Positions 4,532-14,784 of a stretch of DNA of 64,000 bases are shown one piece after another. The stretch is taken from the NCBI GenBank assembly GCA_963736705.1, contig CAVTPV010000005.1, forward strand, positions 5,306 to 69,305, given 5' to 3'. The DNA is from an uncultured Actinomycetota bacterium. Its GTDB lineage: Bacteria > Actinomycetota > Thermoleophilia > RBG-16-64-13. Within the stretch, counting starts at the first letter, position 1, and the number at the start of each line of letters is the position of its first letter. The notes below the pieces were generated by a model. The model saw only the letters and a program-made list of their open reading frames with translations. It was not told the DNA's origin and did not search any database. A program made the translations under genes and the position numbers.

Positions 4532-6265
4532 TCACTTCAGGGGTATCACCGGCAGCAGCAGGTGCGACGGGTACTCCGCGTTGTGATAGACGCTGTGTGT
4601 CACGGTCTTGCTGCTGCACACGTGGTTCCCGATGTATTCGATGTTGCTCAGGCCGGCGGTGCCAGTCGGTACGTCGAGGCTGGTGATGTCCACGCAGATC
4701 CGGTGCCCGCGCAGGAACATGTTCGCCGTCGAGAGCAATTCTACCTGGTATTCGTTGATTTCCCCGGGGACAACCGGCTGCTGGGCCTCCCGAGTGAGCT
4801 TGTGGAACGGCGCCCAGGGCTTGCTGTGCTCCGCATCGAGGGCGCGGTGCGACGCCTTGAGCCATCCGCGGGTGAGTTCCCGCTCGGGAAGATCGCCCGG
4901 GACGTTACGTTCGCCCTCCCGTTGCGTCCGCACCGACACGTCCGGCCCCACGTCCGACAGGACGATGATCCAGTTGGTGTCGTCCTGGTCGAGGGCGGCG
5001 TGGATGGTCAGCGAGCAGGGGCCCACCACCAGCAGGTCGTCGGCCAGCGGCTCGCTCATGTAGCGGAGGCGCTCCACCTTCATGGTCTTCTTGAGCGGCA
5101 TCTGCGTGAAGACGTCGGGGTCGGGGTTGTAGCTCTGGGTCTGCTCCTTGGGCAGCGACTCCTCGGTGGTGAGGCGCTCCCAGCTGTCGAGGTAGAACTT
5201 GGTCCACTGCGTCTCGGGGGCGGGCCAGTCGCTGAAGGTGCGCCACTTGTTCTCGCCCATGACCCAGGTCTTCACCGGCGGGTCGGCCTCGGCGCCGTTG
5301 TCGATGCCCTTCAGCCAGTGGTCGTACCAGCGGATGATGTCGTCGTGCATGTCGTGGAACGGGCGTTCCATGTGGGCGGGTCCGTTGAAAAGGAGCCGTT
5401 TCTTGGGGGAGTTCTGAGCGTTGATGAACCAGTGCTGGGCTCCCTGCCAGTGCATCTTGTAGGTGTAGGCGTAGGCGCCGGAGCCGCAGACGAACGGGAT
5501 CTTCACCTTCTGGAAGTCCACCTCGCTCTTGGCGAGGAGTTCGGGATAGTCATACGGATCGATGAGCGTCCAGAACGTCATCCCCTGGCGCTGGCCCTTC
5601 TGGGTGAGGATGTTCCACAGGTGCGCGTACATCCGGTAGTCGGGGTTGTTCATGGCCCATTCCCACTTGGCCTCGTCCTCGGGCGATAGCGGCCCCGGCT
5701 GCCCGCACGGCTCGTGCACGCAGCTGAACATGCCCAGCAGGTAGGGCATCATCTGGAACACGCCGCCCGGATGGAACTCGCGGACGCTCCACATGCCGCT
5801 GAAGCCGCCCATGGAGTCGTACGGGTAGATGGCCTTGAGCGCCGGGTGCCCCTGCACCGCGGCCCGGAACTGCTCCCCGCCGAACGCCGATATGCCGATC
5901 ATGCCCACATTGCCGTCGCACCAGGGCTGCTGGGAGATCCACTCGATCATGTCGTAGTGGTCGGTCTCGTTGTCGGGCGTGTAGTCGCCCTCCGACTTGC
6001 CCACCCCGCGCAACTCCGCGATGACGTGCGCGTACCCGTTGGCCACCAGCCGCTTGGTGTCTCCGCCCTCCACCACGCCGTACCACAGTGAGGCGTAGGC
6101 CGGCTGGGGCGGCAGCGCTTCGGCGATCTCCGGGCGCTGCAGGTCTTTGTTGTGCACCGCGCAGGTGTAGAGCACCGGCGTGGCGCCGCCTGCTTTGGGC
6201 CTGTAGACGTCCACGGCCAGATGCACTCCGTCGCGCATCCGCACCATCACGTCACGTTCCTGGAT
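4532..6265 (-). CDS. CocE/NonD (peptidase S15) family hydrolase / X-Pro dipeptidyl-peptidase-like
   Basis: Uninterrupted ~578-aa ORF; 'GVHLAVDVYRP...PVLYTCAVHNKD...GYAHVIAELRGVGKSEGDY...GMIGISAFG' carries the alpha/beta-hydrolase GxSxG and the S15 N-terminal signature; the likely start is M at 'MIQERDVMVRM'. Confidence 0.7.
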   Translation of the reverse strand: MQERDVMVRMRDGVHLAVDVYRPKAGGATPVLYTCAVHNKDLQRPEIAEALPPQPAYASLWYGVVEGGDTKRLVANGYAHVIAELRGVGKSEGDYTPDNETDHYDMIEWISQQPWCDGNVGMIGISAFGGEQFRAAVQGHPALKAIYPYDSMGGFSGMWSVREFHPGGVFQMMPYLLGMFSCVHEPCGQPGPLSPEDEAKWEWAMNNPDYRMYAHLWNILTQKGQRQGMTFWTLIDPYDYPELLAKSEVDFQKVKIPFVCGSGAYAYTYKMHWQGAQHWFINAQNSPKKRLLFNGPAHMERPFHDMHDDIIRWYDHWLKGIDNGAEADPPVKTWVMGENKWRTFSDWPAPETQWTKFYLDSWERLTTEESLPKEQTQSYNPDPDVFTQMPLKKTMKVERLRYMSEPLADDLLVVGPCSLTIHAALDQDDTNWIIVLSDVGPDVSVRTQREGERNVPGDLPERELTRGWLKASHRALDAEHSKPWAPFHKLTREAQQPVVPGEINEYQVELLSTANMFLRGHRICVDITSLDVPTGTAGLSNIEYIGNHVCSSKTVTHSVYHNAEYPSHLLLPVIPLK

Positions 6266-7505: not shown

Positions 7506-9363
7506 CTACTGCCTCCAGGGCGAAAGTGGCTTGGTGGCCGTCTGGTGGTGCCTCGGCTTGCGGCGGCCTCTCGGGGCCGGGGGTTCCAGCAGGCTCAGTT
7601 CGTCCTGCACCTCCAGGGTCTCGATGGGGATCACGCGCATGCGTTTCACTCCCATCAGCACCATGAAGGCCGACGTTATGAACACCATCGCCGCCGGGCC
7701 GCGGACGCCGTAGGCGCCGGAGACCGTCTGGACTATCGCGAACCACCAGGCCCGCAGCCAGCCTATGTCGTTCCCTGAGGCCAGGTACGAGTACAGAAGG
7801 ATGGGGACGATCAGACCGAACAACAGCACCGGGGCGTTGCTCAGGAAACGGTGGCGCCAGAACGCTCCCGTGTAGACGGGCTCGGCGAAGCAGGTGGCCA
7901 GCGGCCAGGTCCAGGCCAGGGCCAGGCAGGGCAGCACCAGGAACGCCGAGCGGGACAGCATCAGGGTCAGGCCGAATATCAGGCTCACGAAGCCCACGCA
8001 TAGGCGGGTCATCTCCGTGGCCGCGCGGGATTCGCGGGGGCGCAGGTAGCCCAGCAGATGCCGGGAGATCACGAAGGCGGCGCCGCCCAGCAGGATGAGG
8101 ATGAGCGTCGGGCCGACCTTGGGACTCGTGGCCGGGCCGGGCGTCGTCGGCACCTGGAAGTGATACAGCGGGATGAGCCCCCAGCGGGCGAGGGCGTAGG
8201 CGAGCAGGAAGACCAGCCCCAGCGGGATGGCGAACGACAGCAGGTTGCGCAGGTGCAGCAGGGCGCCGCGTCCGCTGATGCGCGAGGAGAAGAGCCAGAT
8301 GAGCAGAGCGCAGATGGTCGGGAGGAGCATGAGCACGGCCAACAGCGTGACCGCCCGGCTGGTGAGGTAGCGTCCGGAGTTGAGCACCAGGGCCGTCCCC
8401 GGGTCGGAGGGCATCTCGGCCTGGGCGTCCAGCGACATGATGAGCCGCTCGATGGCGGCGCCCTGCTGGGAGAGCCCGGCCGCCGTGGGGTTGCCGGTCG
8501 AGTCGTCATAGAGGCGCAGCGACGGGATGCCCTTGCTGAGCCCCGCCACCTGGTCGCCGCGGGACAGGGCGAGGGCGTGGTCGGCGGCCTGTGAAGCCAT
8601 GCCGGGCACCCGGAGCGCCAGCCCTGATTTGGCCAGCACCTGGGTGGTCAGTTGCACGTACCAGCCCGGAGTGGTGTCCTGGGGAGCGCTGACCCCGGCC
8701 CGCAGGATCTTGGTGCGCTCCTTGCCGAGGCCCGAGACCGAGAGGATGGTGGAGACATTGGAGACGATGTCCCGGAGTTCGCCGTCGCTGTTGTTGAGGA
8801 AGTAGTCCATCCCCAGACCACCGCTGCTCCAGTCTTCCGTGGAGAGGAAGATGATGGTCTTCTGATGGGGCCGGGATGCGAACACCTGAGCCAATTCCAT
8901 CAGGACGGCCGAGCCGCTCGAGTAGTGGAGCGGGTCCACCTTGGCCACGGCCGGCGTGTCGCGCGGCGCGGCGATCACGATGGCGTCCCCCTTGCCGGGC
9001 AGGACGAGCACGACGTTGCGCAACGTCACTTCGCGATCACCGAGCGGGGCCTGGAACTCCTGGACCACGGGGTCGCCGAAGGCGGAGAACTTGCCCTCGA
9101 CCCAGGTGGCCACCTCGGCGGCGTCTTCCGATCCCAGGCTGCGTTCCTGGTCCCTTGCTCCACATGTCCTCGGCCAGGCGGAAGGCCCGGTTGGAGTCGA
9201 AGAAGGTGGGGCCGATGGTGACCTCGATGGTGGAGGTCGGGGACGAGATGGAGAGGAAGACGACCACGGCCGAGAGGACGACGAGGGCCACGCAGACGGC
9301 GTACGCTATCTTCCTCAGTTGCCGGACCCGGTCTACCAGGCGCCGGCGGATGGTCAGGGGCAT
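7506..9363 (-). CDS. Membrane-anchored M28-family peptidase homolog with C-terminal polytopic membrane domain, 1 frameshift near 9130
   Basis: N-terminal TM helix (AVCVALVVLSAVVVFL); M28 peptidase-like core (VVLVLPGKGDAIVIAAPRDT...HYSSGSAVLMELAQVF...IFLSTEDWSSGGLG); then ~8 predicted TM helices. Confidence 0.5.
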
Positions 9364-9468
9364 ACACGACTCCCGTTCTGTGGAGGCTCAGAATTATATG
9401 CCTGCTAACCGCGTCGAGGCAAATGAGCGTGTTATCCTTCGGCGGTCTGCCCCCTGGAGGAACCATCC

Positions 9469-10706
9469 GTGTCAGCCAAGCTCATCAGCATAGAAGAGGC
9501 CCGAAACCGCGTTCTGGCCGAGGCTCAGCCTCTGCCGCCGGAGACCATCCCCATCGTCGAGGCTCTCGGCTCGGTGCTCTGCGAGGACATCGTCGCCCCG
9601 CACGACGTCCCCCCGTTCGACAACTCCGGCATGGACGGCTACGCGGTACAGGCGGCGGACATCGTGGAAGCGGACGCCTCCTCTCCGGCCCGGCTGCTCA
9701 TCACGGAGACCATCCCCGCGGGGCATGTGGCCTTGGCGGCTGTGCTGCCGGGGCAAGCGGCCCGCATCATGACCGGCGCTCCCGTGCCCCAAGGCGCCGA
9801 CACCGTGGTCCAGTCGGAACTCACCACCGAGGACGACGGGTACGTCAACATCCTCGAGGCGGTCAGGCGGGGCAAGAACATCCGCCGCGCCGGTGAGGAC
9901 GTCACAGTGCGGCGAGCGGGTGCTGGCCGCGGGCACGCCCCTCGCTCCGGCCGAGATAGGAATGATCGCCAGCCTGGGATATCCCCAGGTGTCGGTGCAT
10001 CGGCGGCCGCGGGTGGCCATCATCTCCACGGGCAGCGAACTGGTGGAGGTCGACCAGCCGCTCGGCCCCGGGCAGATCCGGAACTCCAACAGCTACTCCC
10101 TGCAGGCGCTCTGCCGGCAGATGGGAGTGGAAGCCGGTCCCGTTCGGCATCGTCCCCGACGACTATGAGGCCACGCGCAAAGCGGTGGAAGCCGGTCTGG
10201 AATACGACGTGCTGCTCACTTCCGGGGGCGTCTCGGTCGGCACGTTCGACTTCGTCAAGGACGTCCAGGACGAGCTCGGCGTGGAGCGCAAGCTGTGGGG
10301 CATCGCCATGAAGCCCGGCAAGCCGGTGGCGTTCGGCGTGCGGGGCAAGACTCTGGTCTTCGGGCTGCCAGGCAACCCGGTGTCGGCCATGGTGTCGTTC
10401 GAGCTGTTCGTCAAGCCGGCGTTGCTGCGGCTCATGGGCCACCGCCGGACCACCAAGCCGCTCTACACCGCCATCATCGAGGAAGACATCTCCAACCCGG
10501 ACGGCCGGGTCTACGTGGTGCGCGTGCGGGCCTGGCGCGAAGACGGCGCCTGGCACATCAGCTCCACCGGCGCGCAGGGCTCGGGGATACTGAGGTCCAT
10601 GGTGGGCGCCAACGGACTGGCCTTCATCCCGGGCGGCCACCGGGGCGTCAAAGCCGGTGAACAGGTGGAATTCCTGCTTCTTCGCGAAGACCTTGAGGAA
10701 CCCTGA
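9469..10706 (+). CDS. moeA: Molybdopterin molybdenumtransferase MoeA, 2 frameshifts (~9900, ~10140)
   Basis: 'PPFDNSGMDGYAV...RIMTGAPVPQGADTVV' + 'IASLGY..V.V.RRPRVAIISTGSELV' + 'DVLLTSGGVSVGTFDFVKDV...FGLPGNPVSAMVSFELFVKP' across three frames. Confidence 0.75.
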
Positions 10707-10735
10707 TAGTAGCCTGAACGGCGTGCCTCGGCGGG

Positions 10736-10764
10736 TTGTCGACGGACCTCGCCGGGGCTACAAT
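10736..10764 (+). promoter_or_regulatory. sigma70-like promoter: -35 TTGTCG, 17-bp spacer, -10 TACAAT
   Basis: TTGTCGacggacctcgccggggcTACAAT read directly in the moeA-downstream intergenic region; predicted TSS ~10771. Confidence 0.5.
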
Positions 10765-10770
10765 GAGAGC

Positions 10771-10882
10771 GTGATCAAAGTAATTCGACAGAGGCGCGGG
10801 GGAGCTGATGAAGGCTCAACCGTGCGGGGCAAAAAGACCGGTTGAACTGGCCTGGTAGCTGACGCTGCTGGGCTTTTTTGTT
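10771..10882 (+). ncRNA. Candidate small RNA or attenuator-type 5' leader (~110 nt) between the promoter and an intrinsic terminator; contains a 16-codon mini-ORF (10808-10858, MKAQPCGAKRPVELAW)
   Basis: Promoter, then ~80 nt, then a hairpin CCUGGUAGC-UGAC-GCUGCUGGG followed by CUUUUUUGUU; the mini-ORF stop lies inside the terminator stem; local GC is lower than the flanks. Confidence 0.25.
10851..10882 (+). terminator. Rho-independent terminator (9-bp stem with 3 G·U pairs, UGAC loop, U6 tract)
   Basis: cctggtagc tgac gctgctggg c tttttt g tt. Confidence 0.4.
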
Positions 10883-10921
10883 GGAACAAGGCTTCTTGGC
10901 TCAGATCGGAAAGGAGATCTC

Positions 10922-11110
10922 ATGGCCAACCACTTCACCCCCGAGGAGCTTGCGACCGAGCTGAACACAGGTACGCATGACGTGATCCAGTTGTGCGTGA
11001 AGGAAGGCATCCCCATCTACAAGGGGAAGATCGATCGCAGCCTCCTGACGGCGGTGATGAGGACCAAGGGCATCCAGCTTCCCAAGACTGAAGTAGCCGC
11101 TACGGCCTAG
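10922..11110 (+). CDS. Small (62 aa) putative HTH DNA-binding protein (excisionase/AlpA-like fold suspected)
   Basis: 'MANHFTPEELATELNTGTHDVIQLCVKEGIPIYKGKIDRSLL' resembles HTH_17/Xis-type helix-turn-helix; RBS GGAAAGGAG lies 6 nt upstream; lower GC than surroundings. Confidence 0.35.
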   Translation: MANHFTPEELATELNTGTHDVIQLCVKEGIPIYKGKIDRSLLTAVMRTKGIQLPKTEVAATA

Positions 11111-11164
11111 AGCCCAAGTCCGATCGCGCGGCGGGCCTTCGGGCCGCCGCTTCATCCAGGCCGG

Positions 11165-13161
11165 TCAGACCACCGAGCCGGCCGCACGGCCGGCCGGCCA
11201 TTCGGCAAGCACGTGCCAGGCTTCTGCCAGCAGAAGCTCCCGCGCCTGCTGCTGATCCTCGAGGGTCGCGGACGGCCCGGGCAGCACCACGAGCGAGTAC
11301 GCCTCGCTCTCCTTGAACCAGCGGCGCAGGGCCAGGATCCTGTCCAGGTCTTTCTGCAGCACGGCCACGCCGTCATCGGGGGCCGCCGGCCGGCAGGCCG
11401 GCGCCGGCGCCGACAGCGCGTCCAGTCATCGCCGCTATCTCCTCCGCCAAGGCGGGGTTCGCCAGAGACACAGCCTCCCGCAGCCTGCCCTCCGAGACGA
11501 GGTTGAGCCGCACCGCGGGTATGCCGTCGGCATCGGTGGCCGGCCACAGCGCCGCGAAGCGCAGCGACATCGCCTCGACCAACGACTGGTACGAGCGGCG
11601 CACGTTGAGGAGAGCCTCCGCGCCCTCGCGCATGCGCTGCGCCTCCTCGAAGCGCCGTTGACGCGACAGCGAGCGGACCAGGTCGTCGGCGAGCTCCGAT
11701 CGGGTCCGCGAACCCTTCGGGAGCCTCTCCCGCCAGCCAGTTCACGATGCCCATGACCAGCGCGTCATGCCGCTCGATGATCTCCGCATCACCGGTGCAC
11801 GGAGCGAGACAGGCACCGCACTCCTGCCTCACGCAGGGGCGTTCGGCGGCGCCCCGGGCACAGCGCCGGATGGGATAGCAGTGGTGCAGCAGGTCGAGGG
11901 CCTGGGCCATGCGGGCGCGGCCGCGGAACGGGCCGAGTACCAACGGCGTGCGCGGAGGACGCACCGGATGCTCGCTGGACGTGAGCCACCGGGGCTGCCG
12001 GCTGCTGACCGTGAGTGAAAGGCCTGGGCCGTTGTTGCTGACCTTCAGGTACATGTAGTTCTCGGGCCGGCTACCCTGCACGTTGCACGGCGGGCGGTGC
12101 TCCAGGATCAATTCCTGCTCCCGCACGACCGCCTCCAGGGGGGTGTGGGTCTCATCCCAGTCGATCTGCTCCACCTGGTGGATGGCCTGCCGCAGCTTAC
12201 GGGTGTGTCCCGCCCCGGGCACGAAATAGGAGCGGACACGCTCCCGCAGCCGGTCGGCCTTGCCCACGTAGAGCACGGTGCCCTGCTTGTCCATGAAACG
12301 GTAGGCGCCGGGGGTGCGCGGCACGTCGCGGGTGAGGCGCAGCTTGTCGATGGCGGTGCGGGAGGAGGGGCTGAGGAAGGCCCGGGTCTCGTTCAGGCGG
12401 GTGATGCCCCGCTCCTGGAGGCGTCCCGCCAGGGTGATGAACACGTGGCCCGCGGCCTGAGCATCGGCGAGGGCCCGGTGGCAGGCGGGTACGGGGGCTC
12501 CGAGGGCTTCGGCGACGGTGCCGAGGCGGTAGTTGGGCAGCCCGGGAGCCAGCAGCCGGGAGAGGGGCAGCGTGTCGATGGCGCCTTCGCCCAGGCGGCG
12601 GCCCTTGAGCCGCTGCAGTTCGTAGTTGAGGAACCCCACGTCGAACGATGCGTTGTGAGCCACGATGACCGCGCCCTCGAGGAACTCGAGCAGTCCGGGG
12701 ATGACTTGCTTCGATGCGGGGCGCGTCGGCCACCATCGCATGGGTGATGCCGGTGATGTGGGTGATCATGGGGGGGATGGGGCGCTGGGGGTTGACCAGA
12801 GAGTGGAACGTGCCCACCACCTCGAAGCCCTCGATGCGCACGGCGCCGATCTCGGTGATCTTGCTGGTGCCGGCGCGGGAGCCGGTGGTCTCGAGGTCGA
12901 GCGCTACGAAGGGGACGTCGGCCAGATCGGGGTCGGGGAGTCTCCCAGTGTTTGAGCGAGAGCAGGTCCGCGGTGGCGCCGGAGCAGAAGCGTTGGTCCT
13001 GTTGCACGAGCGCGGCCACGACCCCGACGGCAGATGGGCTCGGGGGCTGAGGGAGAAGCGAGAAGGATGCGGGCCGCTTCAACGGCATCCAAAGGCTCCC
13101 CGCGAACCAGGAGGGTCTCGTGGAGCCTATCCGCGACGGCCAAAGAAAGCTGCAGTTGCAT
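11165..13161 (-). CDS. DnaQ-like 3'-5' exonuclease fused to GIY-YIG/UvrC-like nuclease (Cho-like), at least 4 frameshifts
   Basis: 'VALDLETTGSRAG...EIGAVRIEGFEVVGTFHSLVNP...VIVAHNASFDVGFL...CHRALADAQAAGHVF' (DEDDh exonuclease) + 'GAYRFMDKQGTVLYVGKADRLRERVRSYF' (GIY-YIG) + UvrC-like region; fragments in ORFs 12393..13202, 12197..12841, 11152..12741, 11373..11633 and 11165..11368. Confidence 0.65.
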
Positions 13162-13743: not shown

Positions 13744-14784
13744 ATGCCACATCGCGAGCAGCACCCCATCATGGGGGACATCCATCACTATCACCGGACT
13801 CGGCATCCACACACCGCCGAAGGTCGTCACCAACGACGATCTCGCCCTCACCCTCGAAACGTCCGACGAGTGGATCCGGCAGCGGACGGGCATCTGTCAG
13901 AGGCGCGTGGTAGCGCCCGGAGTCTACACCTCCGACATGGCGACCGCCGCGGGGCGGGATGCGATCGCCGACGCGGGAGTGAAGCCCGAGGACATCGACC
14001 TTGTCATCGTCGCCACCCTCACGCCCGACAACTTCACGCCGGCGACGGCTGCGCGCGTCGCGGATAATCTCGGCTGCGTCAACGCCGGAGCTTTCGACCT
14101 GTCGGCGGCGTGCGCCGGCTTCGTCTACGGTCTCGCCATGGCCACCGGCACGATCTCCGCGGGCATCCACAAGCGCGTGCTCGTGGTGGGAGCCGAGATC
14201 ATTCTCGCGGATCCTCGATATGGAAGACCGCACCACTGCGATCCTTTTCGGGGACGGCGCCGGCGCGGCGGTCGTGGAGGCTGTACCCGGGGCCGGCCGG
14301 CATACTGGGCTTCGATCTGGGCTGCGACGGCTCGGGCGCTGATGTGCTCGGTATCCCGGCGGGCGGCTCTCGGATGCCGGCATCCATCGAGACGGTGCAG
14401 GGCCGCCAGCACTATCTCAAGATGGACGGCAAAGAGGTCTACCGGTTCGCTACCCGGGTGGTCGGCCATTCCGCCCACAAGGTGTTGGACACCTGCGGCT
14501 ACGAGGTCAGCGACATCGACCTCTACGTGCCTCATCAGGCGAATCTGCGCATCATCGAGAGCGGTGCCGAGAAGATGGGCATCCCCAAGGACAGGATCTT
14601 CACGAATCTACAGAAATACGGCAACACCTCCGCGGCTTCCGTGCCTCTGTGTCTGTATGAGGCAAGGGCGGAAGGACGCCTCAAAGACGGAGACCTCGTG
14701 TTGCTCATGGGTTTCGGCGCCGGTCTGAGCTGGGGCTCGTGCCTGATGAGGTGGGGCACGGGCGCCGCCGATCCGGCGGAGTGA
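13744..14784 (+). CDS. fabH: 3-oxoacyl-ACP synthase III FabH, about 4 frameshifts
   Basis: '[38 protein letters not shown]', '[18 protein letters not shown]', '[14 protein letters not shown]' and '[20 protein letters not shown]...[16 protein letters not shown]...[10 protein letters not shown]' in alternating frames. Confidence 0.7.

Follow-up and report, generated by a model that had tools for sequence, protein, structure and literature searches.

A conserved, uncatalogued leader element between moeA and a small winged-helix-type gene in uncultured Actinomycetota: a candidate leaderless-ORF attenuator

The 64,000-nucleotide stretch of DNA analysed here (the window; positions 5,306 to 69,305 of contig CAVTPV010000005.1, assembly GCA_963736705.1) comes from an uncultured member of the Thermoleophilia and carries, directly downstream of a moeA gene, a 215-bp spacer that is followed by a small gene for a protein of 62 amino acids (aa). 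Sequence comparison with homologous loci indicates that this moeA-downstream spacer is a genuine, conserved and uncatalogued leader element. In our preferred reading, to which we give a little less than an even chance, the spacer would act in cis as a transcription attenuator of the 62-aa gene, with a ribosome on a leaderless upstream open reading frame (uORF) occluding an intrinsic terminator. An earlier annotation made by a model from the letters alone (the sequence-only reading) had described the spacer as a leader or small transcription unit, a description that agrees with the promoter and the intrinsic terminator we find ahead of the small gene. The parts of the element are as follows:

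10736-10764, + strand: Sigma-70/SigA-type promoter, TTGTCG-17-TACAAT, from a consensus scan and conservation
10771-10845, + strand: 24-codon candidate leaderless open reading frame (ORF), VIKVIRQRRGGADEGSTVRGKKTG, from GTG at the predicted start of transcription to TGA at 10843-10845
10794-10825, + strand: core hairpin of the minimum-free-energy fold, with outer helix GCGCGG/CCGTGC, internal loop GG/AA and inner helix GAGCT/GGCTC
10849-10882, + strand: intrinsic terminator, with 5' arm (G)GCCTGGTAGC at 10849-10859, loop TGAC, 3' arm GCTGCTGGGC at 10864-10873, T6 at 10874-10879, then GTT
10883-10921, + strand: spacer and ribosome-binding site (RBS) of the small gene, GGAAAGGAG at 10908-10916
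10922-11110, + strand: small gene, 62-aa protein (~61 aa in relatives), recognised by its coding pattern and a predicted fold of winged-helix type

The comparison set comprised 107 distinct upstream regions after the addition of 73 metagenome loci, and all homologous regions compared belong to uncultured Actinomycetota or Thermoleophilia; habitats from which these genomes were recovered include sediment, soil and bioreactors. A script parsed 102 of the 107 regions and one more (L042) was parsed by eye, giving 103; L113, whose terminator the script mis-assigned, is counted among the 102. The main group consists of 42 aligned leader sequences, the other groups being termed 'D' and short-leader (leaders of ~72-76 nucleotides, nt), and the window's own clade is made up of the window and L001-L008. 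Between lineages, the sequence from the start codon to the terminator has diverged past alignment, with the promoter, the start codon and the terminator being kept. A covariance model built from the 42 main-group sequences finds exactly one copy of the element per locus; its match in the window (10771-10882, 69.5 bits) is the sole one in the 64 kb. An Rfam/Infernal scan, which the sequence-only reading had proposed, returned no known family: the spacer region has no Rfam match even at E values up to 10, and there is none at gathering thresholds across the 64-kb window or in 20 relatives. We also looked for the arrangement in very distant homologues (L139-L145), where it is absent, so that it is confined to the closer family.

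The predicted promoter is well kept throughout this set. A consensus scan of positions 9000-13000 returned two promoter-like sites against 0.2 expected from shuffled sequences, one of them being the site at 10736-10764 that had been proposed from the sequence. The -10 hexamer is TACAAT in 72 and TAGAAT in 24 of the 102 parsed regions (TA[CG]AAT in 96), and a TTG -35 element lies at a spacing of 17 nt in 91 and of 18 nt in 6 of them (97/102), while the sequence of the promoter spacer varies freely. A start codon follows 6-10 nt past the -10 element in every one of the 102 regions (ATG in 96, GTG in 6); the distance is 7 nt in 69 of them, and the intervening bases are variable.

The frame that opens at this first codon runs uninterrupted to the terminator in 99 of the 103 regions. 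Of these frames, 51 have their stop at the base of the terminator and 3 within the stem, and the other 45 pass the terminator before stopping or have no stop; the base-of-stem stops fall at a median of 4 nt before the stem, with UGA, UAG and UAA interchanging. In the window the stop precedes the stem, which starts at 10849/10850, by 3-4 nt. Early stops occur in four regions only, three of which (L003, L023, L043) are in assemblies that share a naming series with other contigs carrying frameshifts, the fourth (L130) being a visibly error-ridden copy of L064. The layout also holds where leader length differs: D-lineage ORFs have 25-27 codons, and the short-leader sequences L051, L055, L107, L123 and L126 lack a large hairpin and keep the initial ATG, the terminator and an ORF of 9-11 codons whose end lies 0-8 nt 5' of the stem. 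Two gene lineages at a greater distance, P0160, which has a NIF3 gene as upstream neighbour, and P0191, whose contigs are too short to reveal theirs, likewise show the -10 element, a gap of 7-8 nt, ATG and a 9-codon ORF.

Statistical support for selection on the leader frame is, from these alignments, real but modest. In-frame stops number 5 compared with 11.3 +/- 2.3 in column-permuted alignments (p ~0.004), and in the same test the sequences carrying a stop are not depleted in the other two frames. Substitutions by codon position are distributed 303/298/361, a weak third-position excess (p = 0.02). The peptide itself appears to be under no selection: conservation of the short ORF at the protein level was sought and is essentially absent, with a few D-lineage pairs looking synonymous-biased by eye and a weak pooled signal. 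Because the peptide evolves almost neutrally, coding is not provable from conservation. Arginine sensing was considered and set aside, as arginine accounts for 16.4% of the leader codons and 14.2% of those in another frame, the RR/RRR runs are compositional, and the 9-codon variants contain 0-1 arginine codons.

The short ORF on which the sequence-only reading had based its attenuation proposal is a different one:

10808-10858, + strand: 16-codon mini-ORF MKAQPCGAKRPVELAW, ATG at 10808, TAG at 10856-10858 within the terminator 5' arm

This mini-ORF exists in the window and does stop inside the terminator as described, but it is not a conserved feature, its start being found in only 3 of the 42 main-group sequences and its stops differing.

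That the leader carries a conserved predicted terminator is, from the comparison, beyond doubt. The hairpin scan gives 11 pairs and a 4-nt loop at 10849-10874, and across the 42 main-group sequences 99.6% of the alignment cells are paired, with four pairs changed on both sides; the arms of one sequence form a more stable duplex with each other than with those of other sequences (-20.45 vs -18.67 kcal/mol, p < 0.0002). A hairpin with a T-run lies 5' of the gene in all 102 parsed regions, at a mean of -18.7 kcal/mol, in line with the terminator claimed earlier for the window. In the stem GCCUGGCAGC/GCUGCUGGGC, which contains tandem U-G/G-U pairs, the sequence itself is conserved beyond the pairing. 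From the predicted start at 10771 to the U-tract at ~10880 the transcript would measure ~110 nt, not the ~80 nt suggested before. Downstream, the element GAAAGGAG is near-invariant across the parsed regions, consistent with the RBS already noted at 10908-10916 upstream of the 62-codon ORF, and the end of the hairpin is separated from the coding sequence by a median of 50 nt (range 24-74). By-eye inspection of the alignment of this terminator-to-RBS spacer revealed no conserved -10 element. A pairing of the 5' AUGAG with CUCAU at the start codon of the gene was rejected, as the alignment shows it uncompensated where CUC has changed to CUG.

The leader upstream of the terminator is structured in many lineages. 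A 121-nt stretch of the window folds better than its shuffles (z = -3.2), and in the main group the mean z is -1.9, with 23 of the 42 sequences below -2. The pairs of the core hairpin (alignment columns 23-31 with 52-61) are mostly kept in the main group, and its arms co-evolve there (own -13.95 vs cross -12.92 kcal/mol, permutation p = 0.0008); the conservation of hairpins in relatives that the sequence-only reading had asked about is thus borne out for the terminator and, within the main group, for the core hairpin. The internal-loop and stem nucleotides GGCNCGGRRG ... ACCCGNGCC are conserved in sequence as well as in pairing. In many lineages a basal stem is added, in which the 5' end, including the UGA of AUGA, pairs with sequence immediately 5' of the terminator; the register of this stem is not constant from clade to clade, and an alignment-free own-versus-cross duplex test supports it at p ~1e-4. 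The basal stem is missing in the window's own clade. The D group has quite different hairpins and the short-leader group almost none.

Attempts to capture the whole leader in one fold were abandoned: a single consensus 'rod' could not be upheld, since RNAalifold on a MAFFT alignment recovered the terminator only, and a hand-drawn four-helix model reached 48% paired in its basal and 54% in its apical helix, with realignment to the covariance model giving no improvement. The poor fixed-column score of the basal helix (48%) follows from its shifting register. A search for an antiterminator was negative in that the terminator 5' arm found no consistent partner when each leader was folded without the 3' arm, and a candidate 2:3 pairing scored no better within than between sequences (own -9.1 vs cross -9.76 kcal/mol, p = 0.997), the same as control pairings. 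Separately, we observed that the 5' arm of the core hairpin (columns 29-37 of alignment A2; window 10798-10806) reads GG(A/G)GGUGAU in many relatives, an arm complementary to the 3' end of 16S rRNA (AUCACCUCC). A second GGUGAU recurs in the spacer ~25 nt 5' of the gene, and when the short ORF takes its long form, its stop codon comes from this motif. The motif might conceivably bear on ribosome pausing or standby binding.

As far as sequence can tell, all lineages share a promoter, a start codon at the predicted 5' end, a frame open to the terminator, the terminator, a promoter-less spacer, a strong RBS and the gene. From this arrangement we infer that transcription begins at this codon, that ribosomes read the ORF, and that a functional terminator acts conditionally, with some signal being sensed. 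In the mechanism we favour, which is the simplest, a SigA-type promoter would start the transcript on the start codon itself (GTG 10771 in the window, AUG in most relatives), and because the first codon of the transcript would be a start codon, 70S ribosomes could load at the 5' end without a Shine-Dalgarno sequence. About 105 nt downstream the polymerase would meet a strong intrinsic terminator, and since no separate promoter is seen between terminator and gene, the gene would be expressed by read-through only. The ORF reaches the base of the terminator in the window and crosses it in other lineages; a ribosome close behind the polymerase, either at the stop or translating through, would therefore cover the terminator 5' arm, block the hairpin and permit read-through. 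In an untranslated leader the core hairpin would form, together with the AUG-burying basal stem in many lineages, the terminator would fold and an RNA of ~110 nt would be released. The core hairpin might serve as a pause hairpin that synchronises ribosome and polymerase, and an RNA left untranslated could be locked by the basal stem. The signal sensed is probably the general capacity for translation or for leaderless initiation, not a particular amino acid.

The closest mechanistic parallel is the pyrBI leader of Escherichia coli, in which the leader ORF extends up to or through an intrinsic terminator and a closely following ribosome blocks the hairpin, with no antiterminator needed; that ORF has a Shine-Dalgarno sequence, and UTP is sensed through U-rich pause sites. 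The window element resembles pyrBI in that its ORF reaches, or in relatives crosses, the terminator without an antiterminator, but its ORF would be leaderless and it precedes the gene of a tiny winged-helix protein instead of a biosynthetic operon; inspection by eye found no U-rich pause tract before the terminator. With the trp and his attenuators the leader has in common a promoter-proximal ORF, a 1:2 hairpin that may cause pausing, and a terminator before the gene, whereas the 2:3 antiterminator and the regulatory codons of those systems were sought in the leaders and not found. The attenuation proposed in the sequence-only reading therefore survives as a geometry of ribosome against terminator, now attached to the frame from 10771, and not as the 'classic' version in the sense of trp. 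Two actinobacterial systems are also relevant: the leaderless polycysteine sORFs (short ORFs) of mycobacteria are attenuators with runs of Cys codons that govern access to a downstream RBS (bioRxiv 10.1101/834739), and the ilvBNC leader peptide of Corynebacterium glutamicum is, as cited in a later paper, made without an RBS (Morbach et al. 2000, reference 42 in PMC4046766). As far as these accounts go, the window element shares with both the phylum, a short ORF at the 5' end upstream of a gene, and, in the mechanism we propose, a dependence on ribosome position on a structured leader. It differs from the mycobacterial sORFs, which exert translational control, in having an intrinsic terminator as its output element and no codon run, and from the ilvBNC leader, as described there, in having neither the Val/Ile/Leu codons nor the three-hairpin terminator/antiterminator arrangement.

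Several observations weigh against the occlusion mechanism. Its transcript start, translation and termination are all predictions from sequence. The depletion of in-frame stops is only about two-fold, and the independent stop positions counted per frame (5 vs 11 vs 9) do not differ significantly; the third-position share of substitutions in the leader is 37.5% compared with 65% in the small gene, so that the peptide looks near-neutral. The stop can be lost by point mutation in close relatives (UGA to CGA, L028 vs L012), from which it follows that its exact position is not strictly selected, and a run of regulatory codons was sought in the leader ORFs with a negative result. The short ORF of P0160 leaves a gap of ~40 nt to the terminator, so that direct occlusion cannot explain every lineage in full and the regulatory logic may differ from one to another. 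On the structural side, the leaders of L004, L005, L007 and L008 fold no better than shuffled sequences and that of the window reaches z = -2.3, the clade they belong to lacks the basal stem, and the invariant AUGA might serve some other purpose, such as forming part of a 5' helix.

Among the other explanations, that of a stand-alone or dual-function small RNA (sRNA) is unlikely but deserves serious consideration. In such a case the ~110-nt structured RNA would act in trans or bind a protein, leakage past the terminator would serve the gene, and it would be incidental that a start codon stands at the 5' end. An sRNA of this kind would account well for a unit with its own promoter and strong terminator, for the co-evolution of core hairpin, basal stem and terminator and the mean folding z of -1.9, for hairpins that behave as independent modules without an antiterminator, as they do in many sRNAs, and for the lack of peptide conservation. 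There is also a precedent in rnTrpL of Sinorhizobium meliloti, an attenuator-derived sRNA with a function in trans (PMC6614838), which the window leader resembles as a discrete, predicted terminated RNA of ~110 nt with hairpins; unlike for rnTrpL, no trans target or conserved seed was identifiable for the window leader. Indeed no seed is conserved across lineages, as past AUGA the leaders of the main, D and short-leader groups have wholly different sequences, and hardly any RNA body is present in the short-leader lineages. The element moreover always lies directly 5' of the same gene family, in one copy per locus and with none elsewhere in the 64 kb, and the small gene has no visible promoter of its own, so that the terminator must act on it in cis anyway. 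The two readings may also be combined, with the RNA released by attenuation having a second function in trans, like rnTrpL. That no large structured RNA is shared by the lineages weakens a pure sRNA reading and at the same time argues against a metabolite riboswitch with the terminator as expression platform, to which we assign a very small probability. Transcriptional riboswitches usually run from promoter through structured leader and terminator to gene, as this element does, and the conserved core-hairpin loop nucleotides would fit one, but neither the window nor the 20 relatives yield an Rfam match, the fold is a simple rod without a multi-stem junction, and a putative aptamer is neither kept across lineages nor present in the short-leader ones. 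No supported pairing excludes formation of the terminator, and the product of the gene is neither an enzyme nor a transporter.

Control of the leader by a protein, be it the 62-aa product itself in an autoregulatory loop or a ribosomal or other RNA-binding protein, strikes us as improbable. Such a protein would set termination by binding the core hairpin or the terminator stem, and the short ORF would be irrelevant. Sequence conservation of nucleotides in both structures would then be explained, as would conditional termination, for which no alternative RNA pairing accounts, and the 62-aa protein has a predicted nucleic-acid-binding fold and a weak IF2_N-like signal. The core hairpin, however, is not kept in the D and short-leader lineages, whose protein is 56-70% identical to that of the window, and the fold matches are weak and point to DNA-binding proteins. 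One could also see here just the ordinary terminator of moeA followed by an ordinary, unrecognised promoter for the small gene, without regulatory meaning; moeA does lie upstream on the same strand, with no other U-tract terminator between it and 10849. We nevertheless hold this to be highly improbable, since the terminator lies ~145 nt past the moeA stop, comes after a promoter that 97 of 102 regions retain, persists where moeA is not the upstream gene (L132-L135), and is accompanied by a conserved start codon and open frame and by a spacer in which no conserved -10 is visible.

The gene downstream of the element is truly coding, with substitutions by codon position of 325/228/1032. Its 62-aa product has 216 homologues, which are 67-95% identical among the 120 matches listed; among the matches listed that carry a source name, the sources are uncultured Actinomycetota, Thermoleophilia or related metagenome-assembled genomes (MAGs), and no Pfam domain is on record among the homologues listed. 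Conservation of the 61-aa protein is no lower than that of MoeA, encoded next to it. The AlphaFold model (pLDDT, the predicted local distance difference test score, of 83) has the element order beta-alpha-alpha-beta-beta-alpha, and the best Foldseek matches are RacA, BldC, the Xis protein of mycobacteriophage Pukovnik, the DNA-binding domain of pSK1 Par and the N-terminal domain of IF2, all of them weak (E 0.3-1, template-modelling (TM) scores 0.55-0.62). Searches of Pfam and NCBIfam gave no match above threshold, the best being HTH_17 in a distant relative (E = 2.7e-4, 21.6 bits vs a cut-off of 27), and IF2_N reached E = 0.026 with the window protein, also below threshold; a sequence search of the PDB and an exhaustive profile search added nothing beyond a fold-level likeness to MerR/Xis/BldC/IF2-N. 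Judged from the model, the fold may fairly be described as a small winged helix of MerR/Xis type. The protein is thus comparable to BldC/RacA/Xis-type proteins in its size of ~60 aa and its predicted order of elements, and differs from them in lying below all family sequence thresholds, in its Foldseek E values of 0.3-1 and in its fixed chromosomal context.

This context is that of a stable core-genome locus. In all 57 genome loci, drawn from one-genome-per-species contigs, the order is the same: moeA, the leader spacer, the small gene, and a convergent DEDD-exonuclease/GIY-YIG gene. No integrase or attachment site occurs in this fixed context. A phage-type excisionase (Xis/AlpA) was considered and rejected, as no family match reaches threshold and the order moeA/gene/exonuclease is kept in 57/57 loci. 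Of the Xis/AlpA-like helix-turn-helix ORF of the sequence-only reading there remains the weak resemblance of the predicted fold to MerR/Xis/BldC, whereas the excisionase identity falls away, as no Pfam family is matched above threshold. Its accompanying hint of a foreign origin, drawn from this likeness and from the lower GC content, runs counter to the fixed core-genome context. The GC content is indeed below that of the surroundings, at 0.565-0.585 in the spacer region compared with ~0.68-0.72 (~0.7) in the flanks, and simply reflects non-coding and short-gene sequence.

The upstream boundary of the spacer is set by the moeA frame, which closes with TGA at 10704-10706; three in-frame stops follow one another there (TGA TAG TAG, 10704-10712). 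Just beyond lies one further structure:

10725-10758, + strand: GC-rich inverted repeat GCCTCGGCGGG ... CCTCGCCGGGGC, predicted 11-pair helix that brackets the -35 hexamer just 3' of the moeA stop

A hairpin is often found at the equivalent position in relatives, varying in sequence and form. The repeat may represent a 3' hairpin of the moeA mRNA lacking a U-tract, or a structure occluding the promoter; it is peripheral to the leader element. A second GC-rich hairpin (GCGGCGGGCC TTCG GGCCGCCGC, 11128-11150) lies between the convergent small gene and exonuclease gene and may be a shared bidirectional terminator, its U-tract being not clear.

Housekeeping genes of the window are broken across two to three frames: moeA (9469-10706) runs in frame 1 to ~9900, in frame 2 over 9893-10168 and in frame 3 over 10185-10706, the exonuclease gene (11152-12741, - strand) loses its frame beyond ~334 residues, and a fabH-like gene (13907-14784) is split as well. 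Alignments of the MoeA C-terminus are contiguous in relatives. The split genes look like indel errors of a long-read assembly, or else pseudogenes. One MAG, MFD05942.bin.2.29, contains two diverged copies of the locus, L010 (CAWEJM010000020.1) and L023 (CAWEJM010000021.1), whose small proteins are 85% and 88% identical to that of the window; this points either to a duplication of the locus or to a bin that mixes two strains.

Some individual leaders deviate from the general layout. L042 (2670-3000) has a D-type leader with TAGAAT, ATG, a 25-codon ORF and a TGA 2 nt 5' of the core terminator stem, followed by ~190 nt of extra GC-rich sequence between terminator and gene. In L073 (ERZ747221.4447) a DDE transposase gene (49-564; Pfam DDE_Tnp_1, E = 6e-17) stands in place of the whole leader and ends ~37 nt 5' of the small gene, with the RBS and the gene untouched. 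In the leader of P0160 (L132-L135, ~135 nt 5' of the gene) the terminator 5' arm, when the 3' arm is withheld, can pair with the 3' half of the 9-codon ORF (GGCGGGCCCGAUGA). In these four near-identical sequences such a helix might be an antiterminator of the classical kind, and the regulatory logic would then be the reverse of that in the main group.

If the attenuator reading is correct, the element would be a clean, sequence-defined case of attenuation that depends only on a ribosome following the polymerase, with the start codon at the extreme 5' end. One may go further and propose a class of attenuator without prior description, in which a leaderless ORF of arbitrary sequence, without antiterminator or sensor codons, gates a terminator by ribosome occupancy alone, so that expression of a deeply conserved winged-helix regulator of ~61 aa reports the capacity for leaderless (70S) translation or for coupling, and the ~110-nt leader may in addition act as an sRNA; this wider proposal we regard as possible but rather doubtful. 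Should the attenuator model be wrong, the locus would still be a conserved small transcription unit that automated annotation has missed. The element is absent from Rfam, and a family could be seeded from the sequences available, which number more than 100 and show co-evolution of core hairpin and terminator. For this large uncultured actinobacterial lineage, in which hardly any regulatory biology has been described, the attenuator reading, if true, would flag the 61-aa protein, which has no family assignment and would be under tight leader control, as a regulator worth study.

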